DNA of 64,000 nt from an uncultured bacterium. Its GTDB lineage: Bacteria; Omnitrophota; Omnitrophia; Omnitrophales; Aquincolibacteriaceae. Of this stretch, positions 16,301 through 59,285 are shown in pieces. Position 1 is the first letter of the stretch; every line of letters begins with the position of its first letter. The DNA is taken from contig CAZEFF010000002.1 of NCBI GenBank assembly GCA_964511315.1, positions 2,230-66,229 of the forward strand. Direction: 5' to 3'. Below the pieces are notes generated by a model. That model was not told where the DNA came from and did not search any database. It saw nothing but the letters and a program-made list of their open reading frames with translations. The translations under genes and the position numbers were made by a program.

Positions 16301-16669
16301 ACATTGTTTTTAGATCAGCCGGTTGTTATTCTTACACAAAATAAAGAAATCGAAGCTGAGGTGCAGCGTTTCAATGAAAGGTATCATTTAGCCGTTCCAA
16401 CCGTAAAGACTGTTCCTGATGCCATTATTGCGGTTTCAAAAACTTCGCTCAATAAAAGCAGTCTTACCGCATCAAAACTTGTTCCGCGCGCCTTACTTGG
16501 ACAGGATTACAATTGGAGTATTCGGTCCGCCCTGATTAAGCAATTAGGGGATCAGCAAGTTTCGATTCTCTCAAGTTCCATGGTTGAGTGGATGGCCCAG
16601 ACAGCCGGTGTTTCAGAACTCTTAAGTCAGCTTGCTGAAACCTACTCCCGTATCGCCAAGTCCGCGTAA
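7382..16669 (+). CDS. giant (3095 aa) multidomain protein: signal peptide, TraB/GumN-like region, internal TM helix, DUF3131-like (alpha/alpha)6 glycoside-hydrolase-like domain, beta-rich region, glycogen/starch-synthase-like GT5 glycosyltransferase domain, uncharacterized C-terminal ~650 aa
   Basis: A single uninterrupted ORF. The N-terminus has a signal peptide (RLALFITIIFTAQSLGLA). TraB/GumN-type motifs are present (LIILIQDAHS ... WIIVAGGFHSAGLL). An internal hydrophobic helix follows an RR motif (NRRNFLTFISLSVIGSIAAFTFW), about nt 9778-9846. The GT5-like domain shows EAAPFLSMAGGMAPAVWG near its start, and later FLMPSEREPGGITQIEALAIGVAFIVAHFIGGIADTV (FLMPSE..PGG matches the glycogen-synthase E-x7-E region). 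Confidence 0.6.
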   Translation: MSFKKSHHRAWRKRLALFITIIFTAQSLGLAPHNLCARMEAEDIPLPISEPSAIQIPPEFGRIDEVFSGSNKKLIILIQDAHSIPEAQRSIQKTISHLSKTYALSGIALEGASGPLDPVMLRNYPDREKLSDVLAELTRKGELSGSVAALIEDGIKTPAFGLENWETYLEGLNLYREALTRQERAARKIHVLQKRLAREKSAAYSKKLLAADDIRNRVESNEVDFLHALLEISKISAVPENTPLSLILNQLNRGPAASQTSRNLENLFGELASYFTQKKNSEALSSLAEKRQSYQSSELDLYAFASYLRHLAVSESIPTISLTPDVIELAEVYDKLNQIKGSAVYAEFETHLNRTIHGLIQTSKQNELNRQSEILRFENKLNQLRLTRSELKQLETSSSDINNRGAYPSLNLELAAHSAFYRNTLKRDHELYENFKKMASEKNTPSAWIIVAGGFHSAGLLEQARKDGFSFVKILPAIRSLPEHDFYTDHMEGKVSWVNQESLDSGRGLYEIFLTFAMSALFKDSSENEAASALRVWRQNIIRDLSEIKRLNESSSYTKIIDAELTARKSAFLKRNWISNINRFTSQMDELEKSARLNKQNVLDILKTPAIPALLTGPGVLTRKGIPASRSRSEARTAAWRESDEPLSRKDVIFAMGEDFTVHLPTGQTYKLPKGLWGKYFSRQPAQQEIREVLPPKSSEPIILIEITVPKAESDELTAELKILGDAVTELFPGYKYAFLPPETAGTSQTQFLKFYKFDILTGDTAAPPVILENAPSIITASAGNSTKPAGPNENPILNRRNFLTFISLSVIGSIAAFTFWPRTKKPLAVQPETVSKINPAGKKLDEIDSGDREAVKIHLSGIGNYLREGGIHPATGIARDHVQIDRLSGKISGTPANYSSPSKLSVYLPFLLKIIQGEDVLALTGISKREAVELLSKSLFSLRRFQVEGSGSHEVQSGLFPWFEMKDDGSLSLVRYSGKATIPILDNGQLSFALAAIAGGLWDSRDPELIEIQKTARDILDHQHYEEMVNPATGLLFEEWDLEGMRGIEKPGHANLWTEWMLAVYWAHLNGHITNDAWLRFNHEIYFQQAENKEIPMPQGYIFSFHETGWPLLYIPAMKSDLANLYYNYLWLHAKHARQNGLPGFVGTEYSPAGQYAQAGIDITKYGNGVVLGRIDDSSLSAPYATAFAALIYPSVGFKWSNRLLSQKGVVDKYGPVTSYKVDEGASHIHTADTTFATALALSGGVSREVEVYFNRARGLSENDLLAPFNQQAAQIQNTSNISKFETVSGIPLPPKNLGAVKKPKNMKLEGKTVSLFSKLQTGHWHGENVSVPEAYWDEKMDSTQSWIFHKGEIIADYQVGATMKDYAWLGTPVDPVPIAGAKYLSFWIPADLKEYWEIELKHIDQQLTSSKIIVNTQDTAVTYETSKDGKWRRLLIPIKPSPHTESETLNYLAVSIPSPLTSPSKREGAIRIKNIQIHSEKPTHEKESFSKSVSSEAASEDGSVGKKPTHETKISEPFFLLLRKEKRNLTNGDLQNIIFPSGVLRIEPRGHWAGESIRLSPNVSDLRYIYMRVRAPNGKAVFKIEIPNLVPIKKEIRINSKNWQTLEIALDQPFAAKDLTYFAVSDATDVIELADFQLSAKAIPGAELFASTDYSPSYSGIYAYASNTAGAHSAQKIAAGELNRLASPLPLSNILLAKAGRSELRTSPYSANVLAIRDYLVTKNGSTQTNPVADALKNAIHLGLGAFSKEIETLVTQLHRENRAHGALAKLLSDLMSEDETTLRQIIAFERILDDKRASEPLSSAEEWSWKIIKSRGIGDIFFASPEAAPFLSMAGGMAPAVWGQAKLLADTGVSVSIVSFLYDQDQNKKHKSAQELITSGVRHDGKKYALKKLEMSLRIPIGPVVEEAFGHRQVIAGPQSIRADVYTFEAEGVRFYLLHEPELGNKLYPPSDSIDSFKRTIFLSRGTLEVIKNLDEFPDFIVSHDWMASLIPAYLKTTLAGVNSLSHIPAAKNYSSDEHFKSTKPLMFLHNTLRDYQAAFYNNMETDKFDRKRRIELFPLSGLGDEHFFGFQDSGDGSRINLAKAGAFHAAGVWHPSLKHGNELLVPETGETLESLMRSKMPYNFGISNAVNLPDIWSEIDHIGKDLLKWARENSIPASALGFSEEIENAATAPFTKDNFKKALPFYRALSKRYLQRQQGMKEDSHVILSGFVGRVAKQKGVALIRDALVSYLDQTADQNTQLFIGGPVAQGDRDAETFEALVKELADNPKYRGRIGVKAGAKEFLDKREVVLSFLAMDIFLMPSEREPGGITQIEALAIGVAFIVAHFIGGIADTVTQYNPAEKKGNGFFFQHFSRDEYLRAWIEATATIHNHPDIAAKNIIENAFEAAFDWSRQTPLYLTMLRYVAGGWVEGDPQAENEIKLLSRILVGNPKIRPILKGPGHSLQIIDSEFKNHPIVADLFDGRKIDIQLLPNDIPSGNFSYDLANRVSSWSSVKKSDINFSGPPINFPWESYEQTLKKEPTHITFSYHNLYFNDGFVAFRNPKGLYFRRDEPFRRRTYSMFVVWNNGEATAEKIRFTKKDGQTRGKVRVVRAQAINQNVDLGPKIKFAIFGQQIISEGKAVKIQDLAHQFPDIFHLYQLPQFPPAAASDKYGPAIGIRELLSGPTHAIEASDRPVLLETLKNGGLSEFNLQPYLGMGYSIQDIREKALAPRGYKEVSAAIPGNQLAAGEYFIQDRTLHIRLKPALYPHNLIGITEDGKVVSLVLTGDKTIGEGYAVSDIASLVNDKLSHLKIRDLFLLANSGDAFRRKNGAFTHTSGPAPYTAGTAMISFALSTPRSEIRKAPADQSNLRRAVKITALALAPDEILGGHFQRPQKNEIQFAIQEITKLPLSSTPKLHDALIHYSSFVLNQETGSWLEKQLPMDSVNTPFISPAARRLAMTKLPKTIAGEGLILDESFVLKGGLAFIPTLFLDQPVVILTQNKEIEAEVQRFNERYHLAVPTVKTVPDAIIAVSKTSLNKSSLTASKLVPRALLGQDYNWSIRSALIKQLGDQQVSILSSSMVEWMAQTAGVSELLSQLAETYSRIAKSA

Positions 16670-21360: not shown

Positions 21361-22662
21361 ATGCAAGTATTACCCTGGGATAAAAACACACAAAAAAAAG
21401 TCAGACGCGAATTCGCCACTGTTTTTGACAAAGAAGTCTTTAAAAAAGTCAGCCGCATTATGTCGGAAGTCAAAGACCGGGGCGATCTGGCGCTTCGCCG
21501 TTTCACGCGCGAATTTGACGGCATCGATTTACCCCTTAAACGCCTCCGCGTTTCTCAAGGCGACATCAACCGGGCCTTTGAAAAAATCCAGGTTCAATTC
21601 GTTCCGCTTCTTAAACAAATCACCGAAAACGTCAAAGAGTATTACGAAAAGGAACTCAAACAGTCTTTTGAGATTCAAGGCAAAGACGGCATTCGCCTCG
21701 CTAAGCAATACATGCCGCTTGAACGCGTAGGAATTTACATTCCCGGAGGCACCGCGCCTCTTGTCTCCACCGTTTATATGACCGTCATTCCCGCCAAAGT
21801 CGCGGGTGTTAAAGAAATTATTATCTGCACGCCTCCAAACCGTGACACGGGAGAAATTGATCCGCATATTCTTGCCGTCGCGAACCTTCTTGGCGTTGAG
21901 GAAATTTACCGTGTTGGGGGAGCCCAGGCAATCGCCGCGATGGCTTTCGGAACACGAACCATTAGAAAAGTGGATAAAATTGCCGGACCCGGCAATCAAT
22001 ATGTCACCGAAGCCAAACGTCAGGCCTACGGGTTTGTCGATATCGATATGGTCGCCGGCCCGAGTGAAGTCGCGATCATCGCTGATTCCTCAGCCAATCC
22101 TGATTATGTGACTTGCGATTTGCTGGCTCAAGCCGAACACTTTGGCGGCACCTCTTATCTTGTCACGCCCTCAAAAAAATTAATCGAAGCCGTCCGCAAA
22201 AGAATCGATGAAGGTTTTATCGTACAAACGAAATCCATTCAGGAAGCGGTCGAAGTCGTCAACGAAATTGCTCCGGAACATTTAGAAATACTTACCGAAG
22301 ATCCGCGTTCGATTTTAAAATCCGTTAAACACGCCGGCGCCATTTTCATCGGCCCTTACTCGCCGGCGGTTATCGGGGACTACATCGCCGGTCCAAGTCA
22401 CGTGCTTCCAACCGGGGGAACCGCCCGTTATTTTTCACCTTTGAGCGCGTCCACATTTGTGAAGAGCTCCCAAATTATTGAATACACTAAAGAAGCTTTA
22501 ATGAAAACCCGGGAGCATGTGCAGAAAATTACGGATATGGAAGGACTTGTCCTTCACCGCATATCACTTGAGGCGCGCTTTGTGGAAAATGCCGGCACCA
22601 TCATTCCCGCAAAAGCGCCCGCGAATGAACCCATCGATATCATGAAGGAGAAAGACGCATGA
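21361..22662 (+). CDS. hisD: histidinol dehydrogenase
   Basis: 433 aa; conserved HisD blocks (AGPSEVAIIAD, CDLLAQAEH, GDYIAGPSHVLPTGGTARYFSPLS). Confidence 0.9.
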   Translation: MQVLPWDKNTQKKVRREFATVFDKEVFKKVSRIMSEVKDRGDLALRRFTREFDGIDLPLKRLRVSQGDINRAFEKIQVQFVPLLKQITENVKEYYEKELKQSFEIQGKDGIRLAKQYMPLERVGIYIPGGTAPLVSTVYMTVIPAKVAGVKEIIICTPPNRDTGEIDPHILAVANLLGVEEIYRVGGAQAIAAMAFGTRTIRKVDKIAGPGNQYVTEAKRQAYGFVDIDMVAGPSEVAIIADSSANPDYVTCDLLAQAEHFGGTSYLVTPSKKLIEAVRKRIDEGFIVQTKSIQEAVEVVNEIAPEHLEILTEDPRSILKSVKHAGAIFIGPYSPAVIGDYIAGPSHVLPTGGTARYFSPLSASTFVKSSQIIEYTKEALMKTREHVQKITDMEGLVLHRISLEARFVENAGTIIPAKAPANEPIDIMKEKDA

Positions 22663-23261
22663 AAAAAGCCGTGAGGAAAGCTCAAATTAAACGGACCACC
22701 GCTGAAACCGATATCAAGCTCGCGCTCAATATTGACGGTTCCGGAAAATCGCGCATCCATACCGGCATGCCTTTTCTTGATCATATGCTGACCCTGCTTG
22801 CCAAACACGGCCTCATGGATCTTGACGTCAAAGCCAAAGGCGATTTACATGTCGATATCCACCACACCAATGAAGACGTGGGCATTGTTCTCGGGCAAGC
22901 TTTTCGCAAAGCGCTCGGCTCAAAAGCCGGGATTCGCCGCTACGGCTGCTTTGCCGTACCCATGGATGAAGTGCTCGCGCGGGTAACGCTCGATATTTCG
23001 GGCCGTCCCTCTGTTTTTGTTCACCAGGCCAAAGGCGTCAAACATTCCCGTCTCGAAAATTATTCTTTTCACGACTCCGTCGAATTTCTGCGCTCCTTCT
23101 GCCTTCATGCCGGCATCAATATGCATGTGGAAGTTTTAACGGGCCACGATGCCCACCATATCATTGAGGGCGTATTTAAGGCTGTCGCTAAAGCGCTCGA
23201 TATGGCCACAACCATTGATCCGCGCGTCAAAGGCATTCCTTCAACTAAAGGCAGTTTATAA
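22659..23261 (+). CDS. hisB: imidazoleglycerol-phosphate dehydratase
   Basis: 200 aa monofunctional IGPD with HHxxE metal motifs (IHHTNEDVGI, GHDAHHIIEG). Confidence 0.9.
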   Translation: MKKAVRKAQIKRTTAETDIKLALNIDGSGKSRIHTGMPFLDHMLTLLAKHGLMDLDVKAKGDLHVDIHHTNEDVGIVLGQAFRKALGSKAGIRRYGCFAVPMDEVLARVTLDISGRPSVFVHQAKGVKHSRLENYSFHDSVEFLRSFCLHAGINMHVEVLTGHDAHHIIEGVFKAVAKALDMATTIDPRVKGIPSTKGSL

Positions 23262-23332
23262 GAAGTAAGCGTTAAGCGATAAGTATCTGCTTTTTCACTT
23301 ACTACTTAAAACTTAACGCTTAGCGCTTTTAT

Positions 23333-23944
23333 ATGATCACAATCATTGATTACGGAATGGGAAATTTAAGAAGTGTTTCCAAGGCCCTCGAACATCTTGG
23401 GGCCAAGGTGGCTATCACTTCATCACCCTCCGATATTGAAGCGGCCGAAAAATTAGTGCTTCCCGGCGTCGGCGCATTCGGCGACGCGATGAAAGAGCTC
23501 GACCGCCTGAAACTCTCAGACCCTATCCGTGAACACGTGAAAAAGGGGAAACCTTTTCTTGGAATCTGTCTTGGTCTCCAGCTCATCTTTGAAGAATCCG
23601 AAGAAACACCGGGAGTCCGGGGCCTCGGCATGCTTAAAGGAAAAGTTCAGCGCTTTCGATCAGCGAATGTGAAAGTGCCTCACATGGGCTGGAATGATGT
23701 GACGCTCAAACAAAATCATCCGCTTTTACAAAACGTTAAAGACCGCAGTTTTTTTTATTTTGTTCACACTTTTTACCCTGTCCCTGCAGACTCCGCTGTC
23801 ATTGCCGGAACCTGTACCTACGGCACCGAAACATTCTGCGCCATGGTGGGAGCCAAAAATCTTTTCGCGGCCCAGTTTCATCCCGAAAAAAGTCAGGAAG
23901 CGGGCCTTGAGATATTGAAAAACTATATAGGGTGGAAAGTATGA
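23333..23944 (+). CDS. hisH: imidazole glycerol phosphate synthase, glutamine amidotransferase subunit
   Basis: 203 aa class I GATase (GICLGLQ active-site Cys; HMGWN; FHPEKS). Confidence 0.9.
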   Translation: MITIIDYGMGNLRSVSKALEHLGAKVAITSSPSDIEAAEKLVLPGVGAFGDAMKELDRLKLSDPIREHVKKGKPFLGICLGLQLIFEESEETPGVRGLGMLKGKVQRFRSANVKVPHMGWNDVTLKQNHPLLQNVKDRSFFYFVHTFYPVPADSAVIAGTCTYGTETFCAMVGAKNLFAAQFHPEKSQEAGLEILKNYIGWKV

Positions 23945-24663
23945 TCAATCTCTATCCCGCGATTGATCTCTATGAAGGACAAGTTGTGCGTCTGCAAAAA
24001 GGGGATTATGCCAAGAAAACCGTTTATTCCGATAATCCAGGCGCCATGGCCAAAGATTTTGAAACTCAAGGCGCGAAATGGCTGCACCTTGTGGATCTCG
24101 AAGGCGCGAAGCTCGGGCAAATTAAGAATTGGGCCTCACTAGAAAAAATCCGCTCCGCCGTAACTTCCAAACTCGAATTCGGCGGCGGTATCCGAACACT
24201 GGAAGACTTAAAAAAGCTCGATAGCCTAGGAATCAACCGGATGATCTTAGGGACCAAGGCCCTTGAGAAAACCTTCCTCGAAAAGGCTCTGGCCCAGTTC
24301 GGTTCTAAAATTGCCGTGGGCCTTGATATCCGCGATGGACTCGTGCAAACTCAAGGCTGGCTTGAAGCTGAGGCCCTCACACTTGAAGCCGCCGTCAAAT
24401 TTTTGAATGATCTGCCTGTGGAAACTTTGATTTATACCGATATACAAAAGGACGGGATGCTTCAGGGCCCAAACTTTGAAAAACTGGAAGAACTCTTGAA
24501 ACTCGCGAAGGCGAGGATTATTCTAAGCGGCGGCGTGGCGCGCATAGAAGATATCTCGCAATGCGCCAAAATCAAAAACAGCCGCTTTGACGGCGTCATC
24601 ATCGGCAAAGCGCTGTATGAAAAGCGGTTTACTTTAAAAGACGCGGTCAAAATCGCGGGATAA
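23932..24663 (+). CDS. hisA: phosphoribosylformimino-5-aminoimidazole carboxamide ribotide isomerase
   Basis: 243 aa (beta/alpha)8 HisA (LYPAIDL..G..VRL; VDLEGA; GGGIR; SGGV). Confidence 0.85.
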   Translation: MESMINLYPAIDLYEGQVVRLQKGDYAKKTVYSDNPGAMAKDFETQGAKWLHLVDLEGAKLGQIKNWASLEKIRSAVTSKLEFGGGIRTLEDLKKLDSLGINRMILGTKALEKTFLEKALAQFGSKIAVGLDIRDGLVQTQGWLEAEALTLEAAVKFLNDLPVETLIYTDIQKDGMLQGPNFEKLEELLKLAKARIILSGGVARIEDISQCAKIKNSRFDGVIIGKALYEKRFTLKDAVKIAG

Positions 24664-24666
24664 CTT

Positions 24667-25068
24667 ATGACAGAACCTTTAAAAAATTACATGGATATCG
24701 TCCTTACTCAACGAGACTGGTCTTGGGCCATCATCGGCATTGCTTATTTGATTATCGCGCTCAGCATCCGCAGCTGGTTCATGAGCCCTCTTATCCGCAG
24801 AGTCAAAGACCTTGATAAAAAGCAGAACAAAGAGGTGAAGCGGATTTACCTCGAAAATTCCATCTTTGGATGGTTCTTTTTTATCATTCCTTTTTTTATT
24901 ATCACCTGGCTCTGGTATAACCAGCTGCATATCCCCATGAGTGTTCAAGACGCCCTGATCCTTCTTGGCGCGCTTGTCTCGTATGTGCTTTCGATTATCG
25001 CTCATATCATCGCGTTTGGCTTGGCAGCCATGAGCGTCCTCAAAAAGTATACGGACTCAAACAAATAA
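24667..25068 (+). CDS. small hypothetical integral membrane protein inserted between hisA and hisF
   Basis: 133 aa with 3-4 predicted TM helices and no recognisable family; sits 3 nt after the hisA stop and ends 4 nt before hisF. Confidence 0.5.
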
Positions 25069-25072
25069 ACGA

Positions 25073-25831
25073 ATGCTCACCAAAAGAATCATCCCTTGTC
25101 TCGACGTCAAAGACGGACGCGTGGTTAAAGGCGTTCAGTTTGTCGATCTTCGTGACGCCGGCGATCCGGTGCAATGCGCCATCGCTTACGACAAAGCCAA
25201 AGCGGATGAACTTATTTTTCTCGATATCACTGCCTCTCACGAAAAACGCCAAACCATGATCGAAGTCGCTAACAAAGTCGCTGAATCGGTGTATATTCCT
25301 TTTACTGTGGGCGGGGGAATTAATGAGGTCAGCGATATCCGCGAACTCCTCAAGGCCGGCTGCGACAAAGTTTCTATCAACACAAGCGCGATCAAAAATC
25401 CCGATTTCATCAAACAGGCCAGCACAAAATTTGGAAGTCAATGCATTGTGGTCGCCATTGACGCCCGCAAAAAGTCTGACGGCAAATGGGAAGTGTTTAC
25501 TCACGGCGGACGCAATCCCACAGGGCTTGACGCGGTTGAGTGGGCCAAAAAAGCGGAATCATTCGGCGCCGGAGAAATTCTTCTGACCAGCATGGATAAA
25601 GACGGCACCAAATCCGGCTATGATCTTGAACTCACGCGCCTCATTTCGCGCACCTTGAAAATTCCGGTCATTGCTTCAGGCGGTGTGGGAACCATGGAAC
25701 ATATCTATGAAGGATTCTCAAAAGGGGAAGCCGATGCCTGTCTCGCCGCCTCGATTTTCCATTTTGGAGAATTCACCATCCCTGAAGTAAAGCGCTTCCT
25801 TTCTCAAAAAAATATCCCCGTCCGTTTATAA
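25073..25831 (+). CDS. hisF: imidazole glycerol phosphate synthase cyclase subunit
   Basis: 252 aa HisF ([16 protein letters not shown] ... SGGVG). Confidence 0.9.
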
Positions 25832-26111
25832 ATTTTTTTTCGCGCGGGTCCTGCCGCGAGAATCCCCAGGTCTTCCTCAAATTTTTCCGGGTCCTGTCAG
25901 CAAGGTTTCCGCAGGGACTCCTCAAAATACTTTTCTTATGAAGCAGTCATTCTTCCTTATCTTTTTTCGTCCAGAAAGTTAACTCTCATCCAATTCTCAC
26001 AGCATGCGGCTTTAAGAAAAGTATTTTTCCTCTCCCTTTACGGAACCTCGCTGCCACCCGCAAAACACTCCTAACTAAAAATGTTAGCCCCCTTACTTTC
26101 AAGAGCGAAGC

Positions 26112-26242
26112 ATCATACTTGCCTGAGAGAAGCTCCCGCAATCCTTTGAAGCTTGGTTTCCCATCAGGGAATTCAAAGGATGAGGGGCAGCGGGCAGCCG
26201 CCGCTGGAGCGGCTGAACCGCGATTCTCGGGGCAAGTATGAT
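26112..26242 (+). ncRNA. candidate structured RNA / conserved palindromic element, copy A (upstream of hisI)
   Basis: A 12-bp closing helix (ATCATACTTGCC / GGCAAGTATGAT) encloses conserved blocks CCTG..GAAGCT..CTCCCG.AA.C, TGAGGGGCAG, a hairpin loop CGCTGGA and CC.CGAT. Three internal helices co-vary with copy B at 33998-34153. Strand of any transcript unknown. Confidence 0.5.
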
Positions 26243-26259
26243 CGCGAGTGTGTATCTAG

Positions 26260-26288
26260 TTGACACACTTTAAGAATACAGGCATACT
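26260..26288 (+). promoter_or_regulatory. sigma70-like promoter upstream of hisI-trp cluster (TTGACA-17-CATACT)
   Basis: -35 TTGACA at 26260-26265 and -10 CATACT at 26283-26288, about 35 nt upstream of the hisI ATG. The -35 is embedded in an inverted repeat AGTGTGT..ACACACT (26247-26269). Confidence 0.4.
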
Positions 26289-26323
26289 GTTTTAATTCAC
26301 ATAACTACTGATAGGAGCTACAA

Positions 26324-26704
26324 ATGCACGATTTTAAATACAATGCCGAAGGCTTAATTCCCGCCATTATTCAGGATGCGGACAGCGGTGAAGTCCTCAT
26401 GCTGGCTTATATGGATAAAATCGCTTTAGAACGCACGTTGAGCGAAAAAAAGACCGTCTTTTATTCCCGGTCACGGAACAAATACTGGGTGAAAGGCGAA
26501 ACCTCAGGACATACCCAGGACGTCCAAGGCAAAGCCCTTACTGATTGCGACCGTGACACCATCCTCATCAAAGTCAAACAGCATGGGGGCGCTTGTCACG
26601 AAGGTTACCGCAGCTGTTTCGTTAATGAACTTGATGACAAAGGAAATATTGTCCGTGTCACTCAGGAAAAAGTTTTTGATCCGGACGCGACTTACAAAAA
26701 ATAA
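26324..26704 (+). CDS. hisI: phosphoribosyl-AMP cyclohydrolase
   Basis: 126 aa; HisI motifs (GLIPAIIQD, metal-binding CDRD..C..HGG.CH). Confidence 0.85.
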
Positions 26705-26709
26705 CCGTC

Positions 26710-28161
26710 ATGGACATCAAAACTTTTAGACATCTCGCGCGAAAAGGCAACCTCATCGCGGTTATCAAAACAATTCCCGCTGATCTTGATACGCCCGTAT
26801 CCGCCTTCCTAAAACTCTCCAGAAACACTCAGGATTGTTTTCTGCTTGAATCGGCTGAACAGGAAGAAAAAATTGGGCGCTACTCCATCATGGGCATTCA
26901 TCCCGCCATGGTGCTTTCTTCCCAAAACGGGGAAGTGAGTATTCAAGGAAGCAAGCGCAAGGATGACTGCTGCCACATTACCTCCATCATGGAAGCCGTC
27001 ATGAGCCAGTTTAAACTCGCGAACCCTGAAGCCGTTCCCGGATTTTCAGGCGGTTTTGTCGGTTATCTTTCGTACGAGAATGTGCGCAAATTTGAATCAA
27101 TTAAACTGGAATCGCGCAAAGCCTCTGCTCTTCCTGAAGCGATTTTCTTTCTTATACTTGATTTCGTCGTGTTCGATCATTTCAGAAAAACGATTTTAGT
27201 CGTCAGTCTCGCGAACACTCAAAACACTTCAGCGGATAAAGCCTACAAACAAAGCATCGCCATCATTGATAAAACCATCCGACAGCTTCAAACACCGCTC
27301 AAGCTTGAGAAGTCAAAGGCAGGCGGCAGCCTGAAAATCCAATATAATACGCCCAAAAAAGATTTTCTCCGTAATGTGCAAAAAATTAAATCCTATATCC
27401 GGGCCGGAGACTGCATTCAAGTTGTTCTGTCTCAGCGCTTCACTTTGCCGGCGCCGAAAAATGATTTTCAAATTTACCGCGCCCTCCGATCCATCAATCC
27501 ATCACCCTACATGTTTTATTTTAAGGCGGGAAAGAACCGGCTCGTGGGGTCATCGCCTGAAATGCTCGTCAAAAAAACAGGGCGGACAGCCGAAGTCAGA
27601 CCGATTGCCGGAACACGTCCCCGGGGAAAAAATCAGGAAGAAGATCTCCGTCACGAAGACAACTTGAAGAAATCCATCAAAGAAATGGCTGAACATCTCA
27701 TGCTGGTGGATCTCGGCCGTAATGACCTCGGGCGTGTCTGCGAATTTGATTCGATCAAGGTGAAAAATTACGCTCATACGGAGCGTTACTCGCATGTCAT
27801 GCATCTTGTCAGCGATGTTGAAGGAACGCTTAAAAAAAATAAAAGCGCCTTTGATCTTCTGCGCGCGACCTTTCCAGCCGGAACTGTTTCAGGAGCGCCC
27901 AAAATTCGCGCCATGCAAATCATCAATGAACTTGAGACTGAAGACCGCGGCCCTTATGCCGGCGCTCTCGGGTACTTTGGATTTAATCAGGACATGGATA
28001 TGTGCATCACCATCCGCACGCTTTTTTCGGACGGCAAAAAGCTTTATCTTCAGGCGGGTGCCGGCATTGTCAAGGATTCCAGCCCCGAAAAAGAATATGA
28101 CGAAACGCTGAACAAGGCCAAAGCACTTTTAAAAGCCATCGAACGGCAGGGTGATTTCTAA
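26710..28161 (+). CDS. trpE: anthranilate synthase component I
   Basis: 483 aa chorismate-binding enzyme (LESAEQ; GYLSYE; IAGTRPRG; GAPK; GYFGF..D..ITIRT). Confidence 0.9.
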   Translation: MDIKTFRHLARKGNLIAVIKTIPADLDTPVSAFLKLSRNTQDCFLLESAEQEEKIGRYSIMGIHPAMVLSSQNGEVSIQGSKRKDDCCHITSIMEAVMSQFKLANPEAVPGFSGGFVGYLSYENVRKFESIKLESRKASALPEAIFFLILDFVVFDHFRKTILVVSLANTQNTSADKAYKQSIAIIDKTIRQLQTPLKLEKSKAGGSLKIQYNTPKKDFLRNVQKIKSYIRAGDCIQVVLSQRFTLPAPKNDFQIYRALRSINPSPYMFYFKAGKNRLVGSSPEMLVKKTGRTAEVRPIAGTRPRGKNQEEDLRHEDNLKKSIKEMAEHLMLVDLGRNDLGRVCEFDSIKVKNYAHTERYSHVMHLVSDVEGTLKKNKSAFDLLRATFPAGTVSGAPKIRAMQIINELETEDRGPYAGALGYFGFNQDMDMCITIRTLFSDGKKLYLQAGAGIVKDSSPEKEYDETLNKAKALLKAIERQGDF

Positions 28162-28166
28162 TGATC

Positions 28167-28231
28167 CGTATATCGTCTTTCGAATTTCGTACTTCGAAAA
28201 GTTCTTTCAGGCTTTCGATGTTCGATATACG
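28167..28231. repeat. imperfect 65-nt palindrome in trpE-trpG spacer
   Basis: CGTATATCG ... CGATATACG outer arms around two TTCGAA palindromes. Confidence 0.4.
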
Positions 28232-28255
28232 ATTTACGAATGACCGGGGGCACTT

Positions 28256-28837
28256 ATGCTCCTAGTCATCGATAACTACGATTCATTTACATATAACCTC
28301 GTTCAATATTTGGGCGAACTCAAGGCGCAGCCTGTGGTTTTCCGGAACGATCAAATCACAGTCAAAAAAATTATCCAGATGCGTCCAGACCAAATCGTGA
28401 TTTCACCGGGGCCCTGCACCCCTAAAGAGGCAGGCATTTCCTGCGAAGTCATCCGCACCTTCAGCGGCAAAACACCCATCCTTGGCGTTTGTCTCGGGCA
28501 TCAATGCATCGGCGATGTCTTCGGCGGAAAAATTATCCGGGCGAAACAAATCATGCACGGAAAAACGTCCGAAATTTACCACAAAGGCAAAGAACTGTTT
28601 AAAGGTTTGCCGAACCCCTTTAAGGCCACACGCTATCATTCACTGCTGATCGAAAATAAATCTTTCCCCAAAACTCTCGAAATCACCGCCGTCACCAAAG
28701 ACGATGAAATCATGGGCGTGCGTCACCGCCGTCATCCCACATGGGGCGTGCAGTTTCATCCCGAATCGATTTTGACACAGGGCGGCAAAGATATTCTGCG
28801 TAATTTTCTCGCCCTGGCTAAAAAGGCGAGGCTATGA
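28256..28837 (+). CDS. trpG: anthranilate synthase component II (glutamine amidotransferase)
   Basis: 193 aa class I GATase (GVCLGHQ, HS, FHPES); position within the trp cluster supports trpG over pabA. Confidence 0.85.
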
Positions 28838-29850
28838 GTTTCGAAAAAACCTTTTTAGCGCTTCTTGCCGGTAAGTCTCTTACCGAAACGGAAGCCGGTG
28901 ACGTTTTTGCTGAACTCTTCCGCAACCGCCTGACACCCCATCAAGCCAAGTCGCTCCTTTTACTTCTCGCGAAAAAAGGCGAGACCGCCGAAGAAGTACT
29001 CGGATGTCTGCGGGCACTCAAACCCTATGAACCTCAAGGCAGCATTCATATCCCAGGGCTGATTGATACTTGCGGAACAGGGGGAGACGGCAGTCACTCA
29101 CTGAATATTTCAACCTTGGCTGCCATTGTGGCCGCCGGAGCCGGATGCAAAGTCGCCAAACACGGCAACCGGGCTTTTAGTTCCAAGTGCGGAAGTTCTG
29201 ATCTCATGGAGGCCTTCGGTGTTCAGCTGGAGGCTTCGCCCTCATCCATGATTGAATCCATCCGGAGAAACGGGATTGGTTACTTTCACGCGCCGAATTA
29301 TCATCCCACAATCGGAAAATTTCAGGCCTTACGAAAATCACTCGGCACCAAAACCATTTTCAATTTGCTGGGCCCCTTGATCAATCCGTTCAAACTCAGC
29401 GGTCAGCTTGTGGGTGTCGCTAACGAAAAAACTTTTGATCTCTACACCGCGATCCTGAAAAAACAGGCGGCAAAACGCACTCTTCTTGTTTTCAGCGCTA
29501 AAGACGGTATGGATGAAATTTCAACCACCCACTCAACAAAAGCCGTTTTTATCGACGGCGTCAAAGCCCAAAACCTTACGATTAACCCAATCACCTATAA
29601 ACTTCGCCGAACATCTCCAGGGGACCTGAGAATCTCGAGCATTGAAGACAGCCAAAGAAAGTCGGACGCTATTCTCAAAGGAATTGAAAAAGGGCCGATC
29701 ATTGATGCCGTGCTTGTGAACGCGGGTGCCGCGATTTGGATGGCCGGAAAATCCCTAAACCTTGAAGAAGGCATTCACCAAGCGCGTGTTTCCATTCAAA
29801 GCGGCAATGCCTATAAAGCCTTAAAAGGATTAATTGAGAGTTCTAAATAA
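28834..29850 (+). CDS. trpD: anthranilate phosphoribosyltransferase
   Basis: 338 aa ([23 protein letters not shown]). Confidence 0.9.
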
Positions 29851-30662
29851 TGATCCTAAACGACATTCTCACTCAAAAGCGCAAAGACCTCGAGGAAATC
29901 AAACGCCGTTTTCCTCTCCATCGGCTCAAAGAAACCGCTGAACACAAACAGCGGATAGATCCGCGCTCGTTTCTCAAAGCGGTATCCAACACAAAAAAAA
30001 TTAATCTCGTCTGCGAACTGAAAAAAGCGTCGCCCTCGGAGGGCATTTTGCGGGAAGACTTTCAGCCTCTTAGACTTGCCGCTGCCTATGAACATGGGGG
30101 AGCCGCCGCCATTTCCGTTTTAACCGAACCCCATTTTTTCAAAGGCCGTCCGAGTTATCTGAAAACGGTCCGTCAAGTCACGAGCATCCCTCTTTTAAGA
30201 AAAGATTTCATTCTCGAAAGTTATCAGCTTTATGAAACCGCCGTTCTTGAAGCCGACGCTTTTTTGCTCATCTCGTCCATTCTCACCGATAAGGAACTCA
30301 AAGATTTAATTCTTCTCGGAAAAAAACTCCATATGGACGCGCTTGTAGAGGTCCACACGGATGAAGACCTGAACAAAGCCCTGATTGCCGGCGCTGAAAT
30401 CATCGGCATCAATAACCGGAATTTGCGCACGCTTGAAGTCGACGCGAATAATGCCAAGCGGCTTCTTCCGCATGTCCCTAAACATATTCCGGTCGTGGTG
30501 GAAAGCGGGCTTAAAAAGCATGAAGAACTGCTCGCATATAAGAGCATCGGCGTTCACAGCTTTCTTGTCGGGACCACCCTTATGAAATCCCAGGATATTA
30601 TTGGAGCCATGGATCAGCTTTTAGGCCGTGACAAAAAATGGAAGCAGGAAGAAAAGTCATGA
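29850..30662 (+). CDS. trpC: indole-3-glycerol phosphate synthase
   Basis: 270 aa IGPS TIM barrel (ELKKASPS..; GINNRNL). Confidence 0.85.
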   Translation: MILNDILTQKRKDLEEIKRRFPLHRLKETAEHKQRIDPRSFLKAVSNTKKINLVCELKKASPSEGILREDFQPLRLAAAYEHGGAAAISVLTEPHFFKGRPSYLKTVRQVTSIPLLRKDFILESYQLYETAVLEADAFLLISSILTDKELKDLILLGKKLHMDALVEVHTDEDLNKALIAGAEIIGINNRNLRTLEVDANNAKRLLPHVPKHIPVVVESGLKKHEELLAYKSIGVHSFLVGTTLMKSQDIIGAMDQLLGRDKKWKQEEKS

Positions 30663-31315
30663 CGAAAGTAAAAATTTGCGGCAATACCAATCCCGAAGAC
30701 GCTTTGCTGGCCGCCCAGCTCGGCGCGGATTATCTCGGACTCATTTTTGCCGAAAGCAAACGCAGAGTCGCCAAAGGAAAGGCGAGTGAGATCATTCAGG
30801 CCCTTCCAGGTTTCAAAAATTTTGTGGGCGTTTTCATGAATCAGCCCAAGCCGGAAGTCGAGGCCATGGTCAAAGACCTCGGCATCAAGATCCTGCAGTT
30901 TCACGGAGACGAAACCGCCCTTTACTGCCAATACTTCATGGACAAAGGCTATCAGGTCATCAAAACTTTCCGAATCAAAGACGAAATGACGTTAAAGCGC
31001 CTTGATGATTACGATACCACCGCTTTTCTTTTCGATACTTTTTCGAAAGAAGAAGGGGGCGGTACGGGCAAACCTTTCGACTGGCACCTCATCGAGCAAA
31101 AGCCTTACATTCAGGAAAAACTTTTTCTTGCCGGCGGCCTCAATGTCAAAAATTTAGCGGATGCCATCAAACAAATCAAACCTTACGCGGTCGATGTCGC
31201 CAGCGGAGTTGAAAAAGCACCGGGAATCAAAGACCCAGAACTGCTCAGGCAATTCATTTCAATCGCGAAAGAAGGAATGAGTCACAATGCCAAAACGGAT
31301 ACCATTCGCGCTTAA
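30659..31315 (+). CDS. trpF: phosphoribosylanthranilate isomerase
   Basis: PRAI (MTKVKICGNT ... LAGGL). Start placed at the ATG overlapping the trpC stop (ATGA); the ORF track extends it 7 codons upstream. Confidence 0.8.
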   Translation: MTKVKICGNTNPEDALLAAQLGADYLGLIFAESKRRVAKGKASEIIQALPGFKNFVGVFMNQPKPEVEAMVKDLGIKILQFHGDETALYCQYFMDKGYQVIKTFRIKDEMTLKRLDDYDTTAFLFDTFSKEEGGGTGKPFDWHLIEQKPYIQEKLFLAGGLNVKNLADAIKQIKPYAVDVASGVEKAPGIKDPELLRQFISIAKEGMSHNAKTDTIRA

Positions 31316-33836: not shown

Positions 33837-33847
33837 TTCTACTAAGC

Positions 33848-33985
33848 CGCGTGCTAAGTATTGCCGCCGGCATCGTTCAGCCCCAAATCAAATCCGGTTT
33901 GAGGGGGCTTCACTCGGCATTCGCTCGACTTCGCCATTCCATTGCGAAGTCGGCTCATGACGTGCCTCTGGCAATACCCAGCACG
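33848..33985. repeat. nested inverted-repeat element C upstream of dnaK
   Basis: 17-bp imperfect outer inverted repeat (GCGTGCTAAGTATTGCC / GGCAATACCCAGCACGC) enclosing a perfect 9-bp inverted repeat (CGACTTCGC..GCGAAGTCG) and AGCCCC..GGGGCT. Confidence 0.4.
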
Positions 33986-33997
33986 CATCTTAAAAAT

Positions 33998-34153
33998 CCG
34001 TAATTGTGAAAACCTGCCTGAAGCTAGCTCCCGGAACTCGTTGAAGATTGGTGCCCGCGTTTTTTGCGGGATTCAACGAGTGAGGGGCAGAGGTTGCTCC
34101 TCGCTGGAAGGAGCAAACCTCGATAGCGGAAGGCAGGTTTCAAAAATTACGGG
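33998..34153 (+). ncRNA. candidate structured RNA / conserved palindromic element, copy B (upstream of dnaK)
   Basis: 21-nt closing helix with an internal loop (CCGTAATTGTGAAAACCTGCC / GGCAGGTTTCAAAAATTACGG); the same conserved blocks and CGCTGGA hairpin loop as copy A, with compensatory changes in helices. Confidence 0.5.
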
Positions 34154-34296
34154 CGGATAAGGCGAGCTAATAGGTTACAGATGGACTGATACATTTCGGC
34201 ACACTCGACAGAGATGTCCCTATCGGGCTAAAAGGGAGGAAATCCGCAACCTATTACCATCTCTTCACTTACAACTATTCACTTTTCACTCATTTA

Positions 34297-34312
34297 TGGC
34301 ATGCCAATTGTA
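34297..34312 (+). promoter_or_regulatory. sigma54-like (-24/-12) promoter candidate upstream of dnaK
   Basis: TGGCAT-N5-TTGTA versus consensus TGGCAC-N5-TTGCA, with correct GG/-12 spacing; about 50 nt upstream of the dnaK ATG; lies next to an NtrC-type activator gene. Confidence 0.4.
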
Positions 34313-34362
34313 CTTATATAGAAGAGAATCGGTATCATAAAATTCACCAAAGGAGAACTAAA

Positions 34363-36282: not shown

Positions 36283-36394
36283 CTTCAGCGACAACGACTC
36301 GGACGAGAGCTTCGGGCTCTCGCCGAGCATCCTTAGGCATTGGCCTAAGGGTGAGGTAATCGACGAAGATACCAAGAAAGATAAGTAAGCCTAG

Positions 36395-36433
36395 GGTGCC
36401 AGGTACCCCAAAAAGTGCCTGGCACCTGTTTTT
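36395..36433 (+). terminator. rho-independent terminator after dnaK
   Basis: GGTGCCAGG..CCTGGCACC stem followed by TGTTTTT. Confidence 0.6.
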
Positions 36434-36534
36434 CCCCCTAAGGAAACAGCCGTTTTTGCCGTCGAATAGTTTCAATGCCCGGACAGTCTAATACCTGTAA
36501 GACAAACCCCAGCAATACAACCAAGGAGCCCAAA

Positions 36535-36894
36535 ATGAAGCAGCAAGTTAAGTTTATGGCGGTTCTTTTCGCCGCTTTGATGGTCCTCAGCTCAACCCCG
36601 GCTTTCGCCAAGAAAGACGGAGATCCATCCGGTTGGGGCAAAGGCGAGAAAAAAGGCTGGCATGATGAAAAAATGCCTCCGGGACTTTCTAAAAAAGATG
36701 GTGAAAAGGCCGAACGCGAAGCCAAAAAAGCAAAGAATGAAACAGAGCGGGAAGCCAAGAAAAAGCAAAAAGAAGCCGAACGTGAAGCCAAGAAAAAACA
36801 AAAAGAAGCTGAACGCGAAGCCAAAAAGAAACAGCATGAAGCCGAAGAAGCCGCTGAAAAAGCGAAAGAACAAGCCGAAAAAGCTAATTCTTAA
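36535..36894 (+). CDS. small secreted Lys/Glu-rich repeat protein
   Basis: Strong RBS AAGGAG; signal peptide (MKQQVKFMAVLFAALMVLSSTPAFA); three tandem KEAEREAKKKQ 11-aa repeats. Start taken at the internal ATG of the ORF 36475..36894. Confidence 0.6.
   Translation: MKQQVKFMAVLFAALMVLSSTPAFAKKDGDPSGWGKGEKKGWHDEKMPPGLSKKDGEKAEREAKKAKNETEREAKKKQKEAEREAKKKQKEAEREAKKKQHEAEEAAEKAKEQAEKANS
36710..36850 (+). repeat. tandem 33-nt coding repeats (KEAEREAKKKQ x3 plus degenerate copies)
   Basis: The direct repeat aaagaagc(c/t)gaacg(t/c)gaagccaa(g/a)aa(a/g)aaaca(a/g) is seen three times. Confidence 0.6.
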
Positions 36895-36992: not shown

Positions 36993-37979
36993 ATGAATTC
37001 GGTCCCTAAAGATGCATCAAAAGGCGAAGTTGTTTTTTATAAGAATAAGCTCGAAGTCCGTCTTGAAGAAGATACGGTTTGGCTTAGCCAAAAACAAATG
37101 GCTGAGTTGTTTGATAAGGATACGGACACTATTAGCCTTCATATCAAAAACATCTATAAGGAGGGCGAGCTTTCTCGTAAAGCAACTACCGAGGAATCCT
37201 CGGTAGCTCAAAAAGAAGGGCAAAGAATTATTCACAGAAAGCTAACCTTCTATAACTTGGACATGATCATCTCTGTCGGCTACAGGGTCAACTCCAAGAG
37301 GGGTACGGAATTCCGCATTTGGGCGACCCAGGTTTTGAAGAAGCACTTGGTTGAAGGCTATACGCTCAATCAAAGAAGGCTTCAGCTGGCGACAAAGAAA
37401 TACCAAGAGCTAAAAACCGCTGTTAGCCTTATTGGTAATGTCACTTCACTGAAGGGCTTGCCCCAGGAGGCTGTCGGAATCGCTCAAGTCATCTCCCAAT
37501 ATACCCGTGCCCTTGATCTTCTTGATGATTTCGATCATGAGCGCCTCAAAACGCCGACGGGCAGTAAAAAAGCTTCTTTCACAATGAGTTACGGTGAAGC
37601 TCAAAAAATCATCTTCGCTCTAAAGAAAAAATTTAAATCTTCATCTCTTGTAGGACAAGAAAAAGATAACGGGTTCAAAAGTTCTCTGGGAGCGATCTAT
37701 CAAACCTTTGGCGGAAAAGACCTTTACCCAAGCGTTCAGCAAAAAGCTGCTCATCTTCTTTATTTTGTCACGAAGAACCATAGCTTTGTGGACGGCAATA
37801 AAAGAATCGCGGCGGCTCTGTTCATTTGTTTTCTGGATCGCAACAAACTGCTTTTAAAACGCGATGGTGCGAAGCGCATTGATGAAAGCGCGCTTGTGGC
37901 ACTGACTCTCATGATCGCTGCCAGCAAACCCCAAGAAAAAGATTCCATGATCAAAGTCGTGTTAAACCTTTTAAACTAA
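36993..37979 (+). CDS. RhuM-family protein with C-terminal Doc-type Fic domain (HxFxDGNKR)
   Basis: The N-terminus matches the RhuM/virulence-protein pattern (KLEVRLEEDTVWLSQKQMAELF...IS.HIKNIYKEGEL). The C-terminus carries the Fic core motif HSFVDGNKRIAA, which has the Doc-like NKR variant rather than the GNGR of AMPylating Fic. Confidence 0.65.
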   Translation: MNSVPKDASKGEVVFYKNKLEVRLEEDTVWLSQKQMAELFDKDTDTISLHIKNIYKEGELSRKATTEESSVAQKEGQRIIHRKLTFYNLDMIISVGYRVNSKRGTEFRIWATQVLKKHLVEGYTLNQRRLQLATKKYQELKTAVSLIGNVTSLKGLPQEAVGIAQVISQYTRALDLLDDFDHERLKTPTGSKKASFTMSYGEAQKIIFALKKKFKSSSLVGQEKDNGFKSSLGAIYQTFGGKDLYPSVQQKAAHLLYFVTKNHSFVDGNKRIAAALFICFLDRNKLLLKRDGAKRIDESALVALTLMIAASKPQEKDSMIKVVLNLLN

Positions 37980-37982: not shown

Positions 37983-38933
37983 ATGTCATTAATGATCCAA
38001 AAACTTGCCGGCGCTTCGCAAACGCAACCGCTCGCGTCATACGCCGTCCTTCTCAAACAGGTGAGGCACACAATAGCCCAAGGCAAAGAGCGGGCTCTCG
38101 ACGCTGTTGAACGCGAAAAAGTCAGAACCTGCTGGGAAACCGGAAAACTCATCCACGAGCATATCCTTCTCAATCAAGACCGTGCCGCTTATGGTCAAAA
38201 GGTCATCGATAAACTTTCCAAAGACATCGGTGCTAGCCGGACTGAATTGGGTTATATGGTCCAGTTTGCCAAGACCTACCCAATTTACCGGACGTCCGGT
38301 AAATTGACCTGGAGTCATATTCAACAGTTTCTTTCGGTCAATGAGGCTAAACAAAGAGAAACCCTAATATCCCGGGCCTCAAAAGAAAAATGGACTGTAG
38401 CCAAAACTCGAAAAGAGATTAAAAATCTTAAAGTCCCAAAGTCAGGCATGAAGTACGAAGGCCGAACGTCTCTAGACGAAGTGAAACCCGGAAAGCCGGG
38501 CGTTTACCGCATCGTTGAACGCGGAGGCAAAAAATATTACGATCTTGGCTTCTCAACTTATTGGGCAATAAAAGGCCGGGTCCCCAAAGTCACTGAACCT
38601 CCGGCCTCGGATCTCTACACCTACAATGCTGAGCTGATAAGCGTATATGACGGCGACACGTTCCATGCCCGGATTGAACTGGGCTTCGGCGTCATGCAAG
38701 AAATGAGAGTTCGTTTGCTCAGCATCAATGCCCCCGAGATCATCAGTGCCGATGGTCTCAAAGCAAAAAAAATTCTCGAAAAAGTTTTGGCTCGGGGAAA
38801 CGGCAAAATCCTTATTCATTCCAAAGAACTCGATCAGCACGGCCGCCCTTTGGTGGATGTGTGGGTCAGCGATAAAAATATCAATCAGCCGCTTTTAGAT
38901 TCAGGCTACTTTACCGAAAGGAATGGAGAATGA
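37983..38933 (+). CDS. DUF1016(YhcG)-N-terminal domain fused to SNase-like (thermonuclease) domain
   Basis: The N-terminal region matches the YhcG/DUF1016 N-domain pattern (AYGQKVIDKLSKDIG..ELGYM.QFAKTYP....LTWSHIQQFL). The C-terminus carries a staphylococcal-nuclease-like block (YDGDTFHARIELGFGVMQEMRVRLLSINAPEI ... DQHGRPLVDVWV..DKNINQPLLDSGY). Confidence 0.55.
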   Translation: MSLMIQKLAGASQTQPLASYAVLLKQVRHTIAQGKERALDAVEREKVRTCWETGKLIHEHILLNQDRAAYGQKVIDKLSKDIGASRTELGYMVQFAKTYPIYRTSGKLTWSHIQQFLSVNEAKQRETLISRASKEKWTVAKTRKEIKNLKVPKSGMKYEGRTSLDEVKPGKPGVYRIVERGGKKYYDLGFSTYWAIKGRVPKVTEPPASDLYTYNAELISVYDGDTFHARIELGFGVMQEMRVRLLSINAPEIISADGLKAKKILEKVLARGNGKILIHSKELDQHGRPLVDVWVSDKNINQPLLDSGYFTERNGE

Positions 38934-57204: not shown

Positions 57205-57296
57205 AAGTAGATGAGTATATTATCGGGCTTCTTAATAAGCACTGAAGCTCCTTTAGTTATTGATTGCGGGAGACCGTACGGCTAGAATACGTCCTT

Positions 57297-58163
57297 ATGC
57301 TTCGAGCCCTCATTTTATTTCTTTTTCTAGCGTCTTTCGCCCCGGCCAAACTCATGGCTGAGCCCAAAATTGAAGTCTCCCTTTCGGGAAAACAAGTCAC
57401 TGCGGACCAATCCACAATTCTTCAAATTCAGGCGGAATGGCCCAAAAGCGAAGGCGCTTACTCCTTCGCGCTGCCCGACTTAAAACTCCAGAATCTTATT
57501 TATATCCAGCAAGGGCAATCCCAGGAAAACTATAATCAGGGGGATACACTTTGGACACGCAAAATTTTCACGATTGAACTGAAAGCCGAACCCAAGAAAA
57601 AAGAAGGCATCATTGGGGCGTTTAGCCTTCCTTATCTGGACCCCGAAACCCAAAAAGGCGGTACCCTTGAAGTCGGAGAACAAAGGGTCCGTATCCATAC
57701 GCCTTTGCCCTCATGGTTATGGCCCTCTATGGGAGGAATCCTGGCTCTTGCCAGCGGGGTAGGGGGATGGCTCGCTCTACGGGCCAATAAACGCAAAAAA
57801 GAGGCCTCTATAGCGCCCTTGCAAGATGCCCCAGAGCTCGGCAAGGTTAAAGCTCTGATCGAAAGACGCGGAGACAAACAGGCGAAAGATCTGCTGCTGG
57901 ATTTGGATGCCACTTTACGGCAATTCCTGACGTCTTATTATCAACTTGGTCTTGAGCGGAGCGCGGGAGAGAATCAGATTTTGCGGGGTCTTAAAGCGAA
58001 ACAGATCCCGCAGGAAGAAATCGCTCCGGTCGAAAAACTTTTCAATGAAATGGGGCAGGCTAAATTCGCGGCCAACGCGGTCAGCGAATCTGAACTTAGA
58101 GATTTTCAGCGTGAAATCATCCGTTATCTCGAAACTAAAAAAGTTGCAGGAACAGTTTCATAA
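57297..58163 (+). CDS. hypothetical Bat-operon-associated membrane protein (signal peptide - ectodomain - TM - cytoplasmic helical domain)
   Basis: Start set at the ATG giving signal peptide MLRALILFLFLASFAPAKLMA; internal TM WPSMGGILALASGVGGWLAL; same architecture as the protein at 60158..61102. Confidence 0.45.
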   Translation: MLRALILFLFLASFAPAKLMAEPKIEVSLSGKQVTADQSTILQIQAEWPKSEGAYSFALPDLKLQNLIYIQQGQSQENYNQGDTLWTRKIFTIELKAEPKKKEGIIGAFSLPYLDPETQKGGTLEVGEQRVRIHTPLPSWLWPSMGGILALASGVGGWLALRANKRKKEASIAPLQDAPELGKVKALIERRGDKQAKDLLLDLDATLRQFLTSYYQLGLERSAGENQILRGLKAKQIPQEEIAPVEKLFNEMGQAKFAANAVSESELRDFQREIIRYLETKKVAGTVS

Positions 58164-58181
58164 TCAACAGGAGGAAGTGGT

Positions 58182-59171: not shown

Positions 59172-59189
59172 GCAAATGTTATTTTTTAT

Positions 59190-59272: not shown

Positions 59273-59285
59273 GGCAGGCAAATAA

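Follow-up and report, generated by a model that had tools for sequence, protein, structure and literature searches.

The window, meaning the whole 64-kb stretch of DNA that was analysed, carries on its + strand, in this order, hisD-B-H-A, an ORF of 133 aa, hisF, a 490-nt spacer, hisI-trpEGDCF, a histidine kinase gene, a response regulator gene, a 526-nt spacer and dnaK. The coordinates of the main features are presented in Table 1. From hisI to the regulator gene, the genes are tightly packed on one strand, and the kinase and regulator genes appear to be co-transcribed with hisI-trpEGDCF as the last two genes of the unit. The original prediction had read this stretch in the same way, with a PAS kinase gene overlapping the end of trpF and a complete sigma-54 enhancer-binding protein encoded upstream of dnaK, and our analysis confirmed both of these points. 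A sigma-70-like match (TTGACA-17-CATACT, 26260-26288, + strand) is located approximately 35 nt before hisI and probably corresponds to the start of the hisI-trpEGDCF-kinase-regulator transcript. The his and trp genes form a supra-operon layout (21361-31315), in which the 133-aa ORF between hisA and hisF is membrane-like; neither trpB nor trpA was found in the 64-kb window. Elsewhere in the window, a very large ORF of 3095 aa (7382-16669, + strand) was observed between plsY and recA.

Table 1. Features of the dnaK locus and their positions in the window.
Feature	Position	Strand	Description
hisI-trpE-trpG-trpD-trpC-trpF	26324..31315	+	hisI 26324-26704, trpF 30638-31315; Pfam/NCBIfam
Soluble PAS-HisKA-HATPase histidine kinase, 390 aa	31287..32459	+	overlaps trpF by 29 nt; stop 3 nt before the regulator start
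Sigma-54 enhancer-binding response regulator, 457 aa	32463..33836	+	REC (Asp56), AAA+ (GESGTGKE, GAFTGA, DEIGE), HTH_8
Lineage-specific structured insert, ~310 nt	33843..34158	+	between the regulator stop and the candidate enhancer; absent from 12 related loci
Candidate enhancer (UAS) for the adjacent regulator	34188..34220	+	GATACATTTCGGCACA...GAGATGT; left half-site well conserved, right half degenerate
Sigma-54-type promoter of dnaK (predicted)	34297..34312	+	TGGCAT (-24), 5-nt spacer, TTGTA (-12)
Predicted transcription start, ~34323	34321..34325	+	from the usual sigma-54 promoter geometry
dnaK Shine-Dalgarno	34350..34355	+	AAGGAG, read from the sequence
dnaK, Hsp70 chaperone, 639 aa	34363..36282	+	Pfam HSP70 E 5e-272; NCBIfam DnaK equivalog 1036 bits vs cutoff 648
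dnaK intrinsic terminator	36394..36437	+	13-bp stem then GTTTTT

The translation of the regulator contains all the catalytic and sigma-54-contact motifs, namely Asp56, the Walker A motif GESGTGKE, GAFTGA, the Walker B motif and the arginine-finger region, distributed over the Pfam domains Response_reg, Sigma54_activat, AAA_lid_14 and HTH_8. It thus possesses the features of an NtrC-family enhancer-binding protein (receiver Asp, Walker A/B with GAFTGA, and a Fis-type HTH), and its closest solved chain, 4L4U (E 1e-102), is deposited as 'Transcriptional regulator (NtrC family)'. The kinase exhibits an H-box and N/G boxes, and its N-terminus is hydrophilic and without membrane segment. Among the NCBIfam models, both proteins score best against AtoC/AtoS, NtrC and ZraR/ZraS. 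The scores of the regulator (AtoC 511 bits for an equivalog cutoff of 714, NtrC 454 for 559, ZraR 417 for 760) and of the kinase (AtoS 211 for 646, ZraS 176 for 479, NR(II) 97 for 240) are below every equivalog cutoff; the two proteins are family members and not orthologues of any named system.

On the other side of the locus, dnaK is followed by a strong terminator, which indicates that the gene is monocistronic here. The first gene after dnaK in nine related loci, at most a few hundred bases away, encodes a protein of ~290 aa without Pfam match, and MoxR (AAA_3) and DUF58/VWA/BatA-like genes come next. The counterpart of this MoxR/DUF58 block in the window is found at 57264-62072, where a 299-aa protein is 28% identical to that of locus L164 (E 2e-29), leaving ~21 kb of other genes between dnaK and the block (36283-57263). 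This interval, in which we observed no compositional anomaly, includes genes for a RhuM/Fic protein (36993-37979) and a DUF1016/nuclease protein (37983-38933). Just after dnaK, a small predicted secreted protein (36537-36894, + strand) combines a signal peptide with Lys/Glu-rich repeats (EREAKKKQKEA, three times); it matches no known family, lies between terminators and causes a strong local AT skew (0.36).

The sigma-54-type motif upstream of dnaK

On the + strand, the bases of the predicted dnaK promoter read TGGCATGCCAATTGTA, with GG at 34298-34299 and TTG at 34308-34310, which is the canonical -24/-12 spacing. The motif faces dnaK and leaves a short leader, since it starts 66 nt and ends 51 nt before the ATG. 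The earlier claim that TGGCAT-N5-TTGTA fits the RpoN consensus with correct spacing, about 50 nt upstream of the dnaK start, is therefore upheld by direct reading of the sequence. When both strands of the 64-kb window were scanned with TGGCAYN5TTGYW, this motif was the sole match, for a chance expectation of 0.23 per window and at least one match in 18 of 100 shuffles. With at least 10 of 12 positions of TGGCACGN4TTGCW required, it was the only match in the window to be both intergenic and upstream of a gene. These figures suggest that the single match, taken alone, is at most mildly unlikely by chance, and the weight of the case comes from the conservation of the motif across loci rather than from the lone match in the window.

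We compared the window with 12 distinct Omnitrophota loci, giving a set of 13: L001, obtained from a genome scan, and L161 to L171, which are the contigs of eleven regulator orthologues taken via the protein database (L172 duplicates L171). The regulators of the 12 related contigs are 67-73% identical to that of the window. Over both strands of 11 sequences (the window and 10 loci; 175.6 kb in all), TGGCAYG-N4-TTG has a single occurrence per sequence, each time in the regulator-dnaK spacer and on the dnaK strand. At the equivalent place, L170 carries TGGCACGTTAATTGAT and L171 carries TGGCACAGGAATTGAA, of the TGGCAC-N5-TTGA type, and TGGCAY-N5-TTG is found upstream of dnaK in all 12 related loci, within spacers that are otherwise unalignable. 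In a MAFFT alignment of 11 loci, from -40 to +20 nt around the motif, TGGCA.G and TTG were the only invariant columns. Since the rest of the spacers can no longer be aligned, these bases must be under selection. Over the 13 loci, the -24 element always reads TGGCA[CT], including the invariant GG, the TTG of the -12 element never varies and the distance from GG to G(C) is exactly 10 nt. The motif starts 55-93 nt ahead of the ATG in all but one of the first 11 sequences. The exception is L169, where an insertion is present and the distance is 137 nt; in L170 it is 65 nt. At the position equivalent to the Shine-Dalgarno of the window, AAGGAG or AGGAG was present in all the loci read.

Among the 13 loci, L001 alone has the consensus C at -12 (TTGC). 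The other 12 lack it, the window having a T there and most relatives an A. The pspA gene of E. coli is sigma-54/PspF-dependent, and we checked its promoter region directly: it reads TGGCACGCAAATTGTA and starts 67 nt before the ATG, compared to 66 nt for the motif of the window, with which it shares 14 of 16 bases and the same TTGTA. As a sigma-54-dependent promoter carries this TTGTA, a base other than C at -12 is compatible with function, the C being preferred and not obligatory.

The gene order around the motif is conserved as well. All 12 related loci present a kinase gene overlapping trpF, the regulator gene, a spacer of ~170-310 nt and dnaK, and the kinase-regulator-dnaK adjacency is thus kept in 13 of 13 loci. 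Examples of Omnitrophota assemblies with this locus are GCA_016196545.1, GCA_964434115.1, GCA_035403665.1, GCA_964349955.1 and GCA_964422635.1. The genes from trpE through trpF are seen in L161 to L169, L170 and L171 begin in trpG, and L001 shows trp genes to the edge of the sequence. In the protein database, more than 120 clusters of regulator orthologues were found at 66-92% identity; the named ones belong to Omnitrophica/Omnitrophota, with the exception of one Verrucomicrobiae and one 'bacterium', and the best genome match is Candidatus Omnitrophica UBA1443 (70% identity). Regulator-guided scans of genome and metagenome collections gave one close syntenic locus, L001, and the other matches of those scans were at most 51% identical, none of them adjoining dnaK. 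Relatives of the pair at 46-51% identity, from Kiritimatiellae, Lentisphaerae and the metagenome contig L081, are followed by unrelated genes and not by dnaK, so that they are uninformative on an ancestral link with the chaperone. Within this sample, the arrangement is an Omnitrophota trait.

Candidate enhancer and other control elements

Upstream of the motif, we observed dyads that may serve as an enhancer for the adjacent regulator. In six loci (L001 and L164 to L168), they are of the GGCACA-N6-8-TGTGCC type, with the left half 128-137 nt upstream of the -24 motif, and dyads are also visible in L170 and L171. The form GGCACA-N8-TGTGCC, flanked by GCCAAA and AAAA, is found in L164, L165 and L170, the dyad of L171 is GGCACA-N9-TGTGCC, and close variants are present in L166, L167, L001 and L168. 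The left half-site of the window, GATACATTTCGGCACA at 34188-34203, is positioned at -109 from the -24 motif. In four loci (L161, L162, L163 and L169), the dyads are divergent or ambiguous. In most loci, the dyad comes directly 3' of the regulator stop codon and its distance to the promoter is constant. The half-site weight matrix was trained on the same sites that it recovers; its scores are therefore not independent evidence, and only the constant spacing is. An NtrC-type enhancer would be expected to have this location and symmetry, and the dyad is a candidate for this function. Approximately 20-30 nt upstream of the -24 element, most loci also carry a semi-conserved box of the ACTTACAA, AGTTGCA or ATTTACAG type (alignment columns ~10-20, corresponding to ~34268-34280 in the window), in which one column is 90% T. 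This box could be a site for a bending protein or a second activator site.

Other known routes of dnaK control were also looked for. The original prediction had seen no CIRCE element at dnaK, and TTAGCACTC-N9-GAGTGCTAA was absent from the whole window even with up to 3 mismatches allowed. Neither form of the sigma-32 boxes (CTTGAAA at -35 with CCCCATNT at -10, or CTTGAA...CCCCAT) was seen on reading 34160-34362. A conserved sigma-70-like promoter before dnaK was not found either, 8 of 11 spacers being without any and three having weak ones at differing places. In none of the 11 loci tested does an intrinsic terminator (hairpin and T-run) intervene between the regulator gene and dnaK; consequently, read-through from the trp-kinase-regulator transcript could supply basal dnaK. 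Searches with Pfam and NCBIfam revealed no rpoN gene in the window, and none was present in the sequences of the related loci. The conservation of a regulator whose GAFTGA loop is intact speaks indirectly for a sigma-54 encoded elsewhere in the genome.

The predicted leader of dnaK in the window is ~40 nt long, A-rich and no better folded than shuffles (z +1.6). In most relatives z is ~0, and a value of -2.4 was obtained only in L169, which carries the insertion. Overall, the predicted leaders (~30-65 nt) are no better folded than shuffles and the Shine-Dalgarno is not consistently paired; unstructured leaders with an accessible Shine-Dalgarno argue against an RNA thermometer.

Proposed activation of dnaK and comparison with known systems

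We consider it likely that dnaK is driven by a sigma-54 promoter at the conserved motif and is switched on by the adjacent kinase/regulator pair, as originally proposed; the synteny, the invariant columns and the dyad together support this reading. The RNA polymerase carrying sigma-54 would bind TGGCAT/TTGTA as a closed complex, and the promoter would open only once the NtrC-type regulator has been phosphorylated on Asp56 by the soluble PAS kinase. The activated regulator would assemble on the dyad, ~110-135 nt upstream, and remodel the complex by ATP hydrolysis via its GAFTGA loop, with dnaK transcription beginning near 34323. The genes of the kinase and the regulator would themselves be expressed from the 3' end of the hisI-trpEGDCF transcript, and read-through from the regulator gene may add a basal level of dnaK. 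As for the signal perceived by the PAS kinase, the simplest guess would be a cue from the cytoplasm, proteotoxic or metabolic, possibly with feedback from DnaK. A promoter that depends strictly on an activator can serve an essential housekeeping chaperone only if activation is constant or if transcription also comes from another source. The apparent co-transcription of the pair with the trp genes is conserved.

The sigma-54 promoter could be real and yet be served by a different enhancer-binding protein, the adjacent pair controlling other targets and merely being conserved in its order. Enhancer-binding proteins often act from afar and on more than one operon, the window has a weak dyad and four loci an ambiguous one, and in Kiritimatiellae and Lentisphaerae the more distant relatives of the pair have no dnaK beside them. 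However, the pair and dnaK stay together in all 13 loci even though the genes 3' of dnaK vary (the usual block being ~21 kb away in the window), and in most loci the dyad occurs right after the regulator stop at a constant distance from the promoter. We regard this alternative as unlikely. The same scepticism applies, with somewhat more force, to the idea that a housekeeping promoter, or read-through of the trp-kinase-regulator unit, accounts for most dnaK transcription, with TGGCAYG-N4-TTG acting as an operator for another protein. This proposal would account for the spacers without terminator (11 of 11 loci tested) and for the -12 C missing in 12 of 13 loci, and the motif of the window does contain a 10-bp palindrome, TGGCATGCCA. 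The palindrome is nevertheless not conserved, since motif positions 8-10 vary freely, and we rejected a palindromic operator because its second half changes from locus to locus. The bases that are conserved are exactly those contacted by sigma-54, at the exact sigma-54 spacing, the pspA promoter region of E. coli has the same TTGTA, a conserved sigma-70-like promoter is lacking and a gene for a sigma-54 activator is always adjacent. A functionless chance match would agree with the single match in the window and with the expectation and shuffles reported above, but 12 other loci carry the motif at the equivalent position, in spacers that cannot otherwise be aligned, which effectively refutes this explanation and leaves it a negligible probability.

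Beyond the control of dnaK by the adjacent pair, a broader role can be imagined, in which the pair would be the master proteostasis regulator of Omnitrophota, replacing sigma-32 and HrcA and tying Hsp70 to the amino-acid biosynthetic state, with a kinase directly sensing unfolded protein or free DnaK. We find this extension doubtful. If true, it would be the first time that a sensor is identified for heat-shock wiring of the sigma-54 type, which is also seen in Bacteroidota and Planctomycetota.

Control of Hsp70 by sigma-54 and an enhancer-binding protein had been called unusual in the original prediction, which was overstated, as precedents exist in Flavobacterium, Planctomycetota, Chlamydia and Myxococcus. 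In Flavobacterium psychrophilum, sigma-54 -24/-12 promoters with mapped transcription starts are found at groESL, lon, dnaK, grpE-dnaJ, htpG and clpB (motif SM4; PMC9723704). A PSSM survey of 2025 reported that DnaK, DnaJ, GrpE, GroEL/ES and IbpA are enriched among the predicted sigma-54 targets of Planctomycetota and Bacteroidota (PMC12316311). In Chlamydia trachomatis, hrcA and grpE belong to the CtcC/sigma-54 regulon, with a promoter in tandem to sigma-66 and CIRCE elements (PMC7482065, PMC8762339), and in Myxococcus xanthus the NtrC-type pair HsfB/HsfA is listed as 'Heat shock' (PMC3892784). We found no paper linking Omnitrophota with sigma-54.

The Flavobacterium system shares with the present locus a -24/-12-type promoter directly upstream of dnaK, a gene of protein quality control, and in both cases sigma-32 is not the route described for the phylum. 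There, the starts are mapped, the regulon is known and the activator is unnamed among three candidates, whereas here the analysis covers dnaK alone, the start is predicted and the pair is nominated by its adjacency and the dyad. The CtcB/CtcC pair of Chlamydia (AtoS/AtoC) likewise associates an NtrC-type pair and sigma-54 with an Hsp70 operon, and AtoS/AtoC models are those against which the pair of the window scores best. In contrast to the chlamydial operon, where the sigma-54 promoter is in tandem with sigma-66 and CIRCE/HrcA control and the pair is not adjacent, the locus described here has a lone dnaK next to the pair, and neither CIRCE nor a conserved second promoter was detected. In the HsfB/HsfA pair of Myxococcus, a kinase is likewise combined with a sigma-54 activator of the NtrC family, and the pair is dedicated to a heat-shock gene; HsfA reportedly activates lonD, a protease gene, whereas the target here would be dnaK.

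The PspF/pspA and ZraS/ZraR-zraP systems likewise respond to stress through sigma-54, and the protein that they control is protective or chaperone-like. In E. coli, the pspA promoter is near-identical to that of the window, at a nearly equal distance from the ATG, but PspF is without receiver domain and is controlled by the binding of PspA, whereas the regulator of the window has a receiver. ZraS and ZraR rank near the top of the solved or named relatives of the pair, with scores that remain below the equivalog cutoffs. ZraS sits in the membrane and senses through a periplasmic domain; the kinase of the window, on the contrary, is soluble with one PAS domain, and its target would be a cytoplasmic Hsp70. 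The textbook control of dnaK by sigma-32/RpoH, HrcA/CIRCE or HspR/HAIR concerns the same gene, which would here be activated by an AAA+ enhancer-binding protein rather than by sigma replacement or de-repression.

The new points are the phylum, a monocistronic dnaK for which no second control element was detected, a clearly nominated candidate sensor/activator pair and the conserved trp co-transcription. Omnitrophota is a candidate phylum known mostly from metagenome assemblies, and the kinase-activator-enhancer-promoter-dnaK cassette names specific candidates that are testable in a heterologous host without cultivation. The finding overturns nothing and such wiring already has precedents; sigma-54 chaperone control is emerging as a heat-shock logic of several non-proteobacterial phyla. 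The trp co-transcription is a small and testable oddity on the coupling of stress and biosynthetic regulation.

Structured inserts in the spacers

The regulator-dnaK spacer of the window is ~310 nt longer than in any relative. The structured insert found there (Table 1) is outside the conserved promoter system and folds very stably, with a z of -8.3 on the + strand and -9.6 on the - strand. Its 3' domain (33994-34158, copy A) has a paralogue in the hisF-hisI spacer, also on the + strand (26093-26253, copy B). The two copies, of ~165 nt and folding as a three-way junction, are 76% identical; of the 42 base pairs predicted, 15 show compensatory double changes between the copies and 0 are broken. 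The conserved junction and loop boxes are GCUCCCG, UUGAAG.UUGGU, UGAGGGGCAG and CGCUGGA in RNA form (GCTCCCG, TTGAAG.TTGGT, TGAGGGGCAG and CGCTGGA in DNA form), and three G-U pairs are present on the + strand of the element. Immediately 5' of copy A, the region 33843-33992 forms a very stable long-hairpin domain, with 30-nt arms and internal hairpins; the sequence ahead of copy B showed no counterpart of this domain.

The window gave no Rfam match at gathering thresholds, and at E up to 5 there was nothing meaningful for either long spacer and no match for either copy. A covariance model of the element (R1), built from the two copies, detected no further copy in the related loci, and a pattern scan of viral contigs gave no copies. 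Each copy follows the last gene of one transcription unit (hisF for copy B, the regulator gene for copy A) and is positioned just upstream of the next promoter, that is the TTGACA-17-CATACT match after copy B, and the dnaK candidate enhancer and promoter after copy A. One possibility is that this ~165-nt element represents an RNA family not yet described; another is that it is a structured mobile repeat.

Two related spacers carry lineage-specific palindromic inserts of their own. In L169, a REP-like pair of GC-rich hairpins (6520-6600) lies inside the predicted dnaK leader, for which the z of -2.4 was obtained, and in L161 a duplicated palindrome of the ATTAAT-GGTGACTGTCAC type (6440-6510) is located upstream of the dyad.
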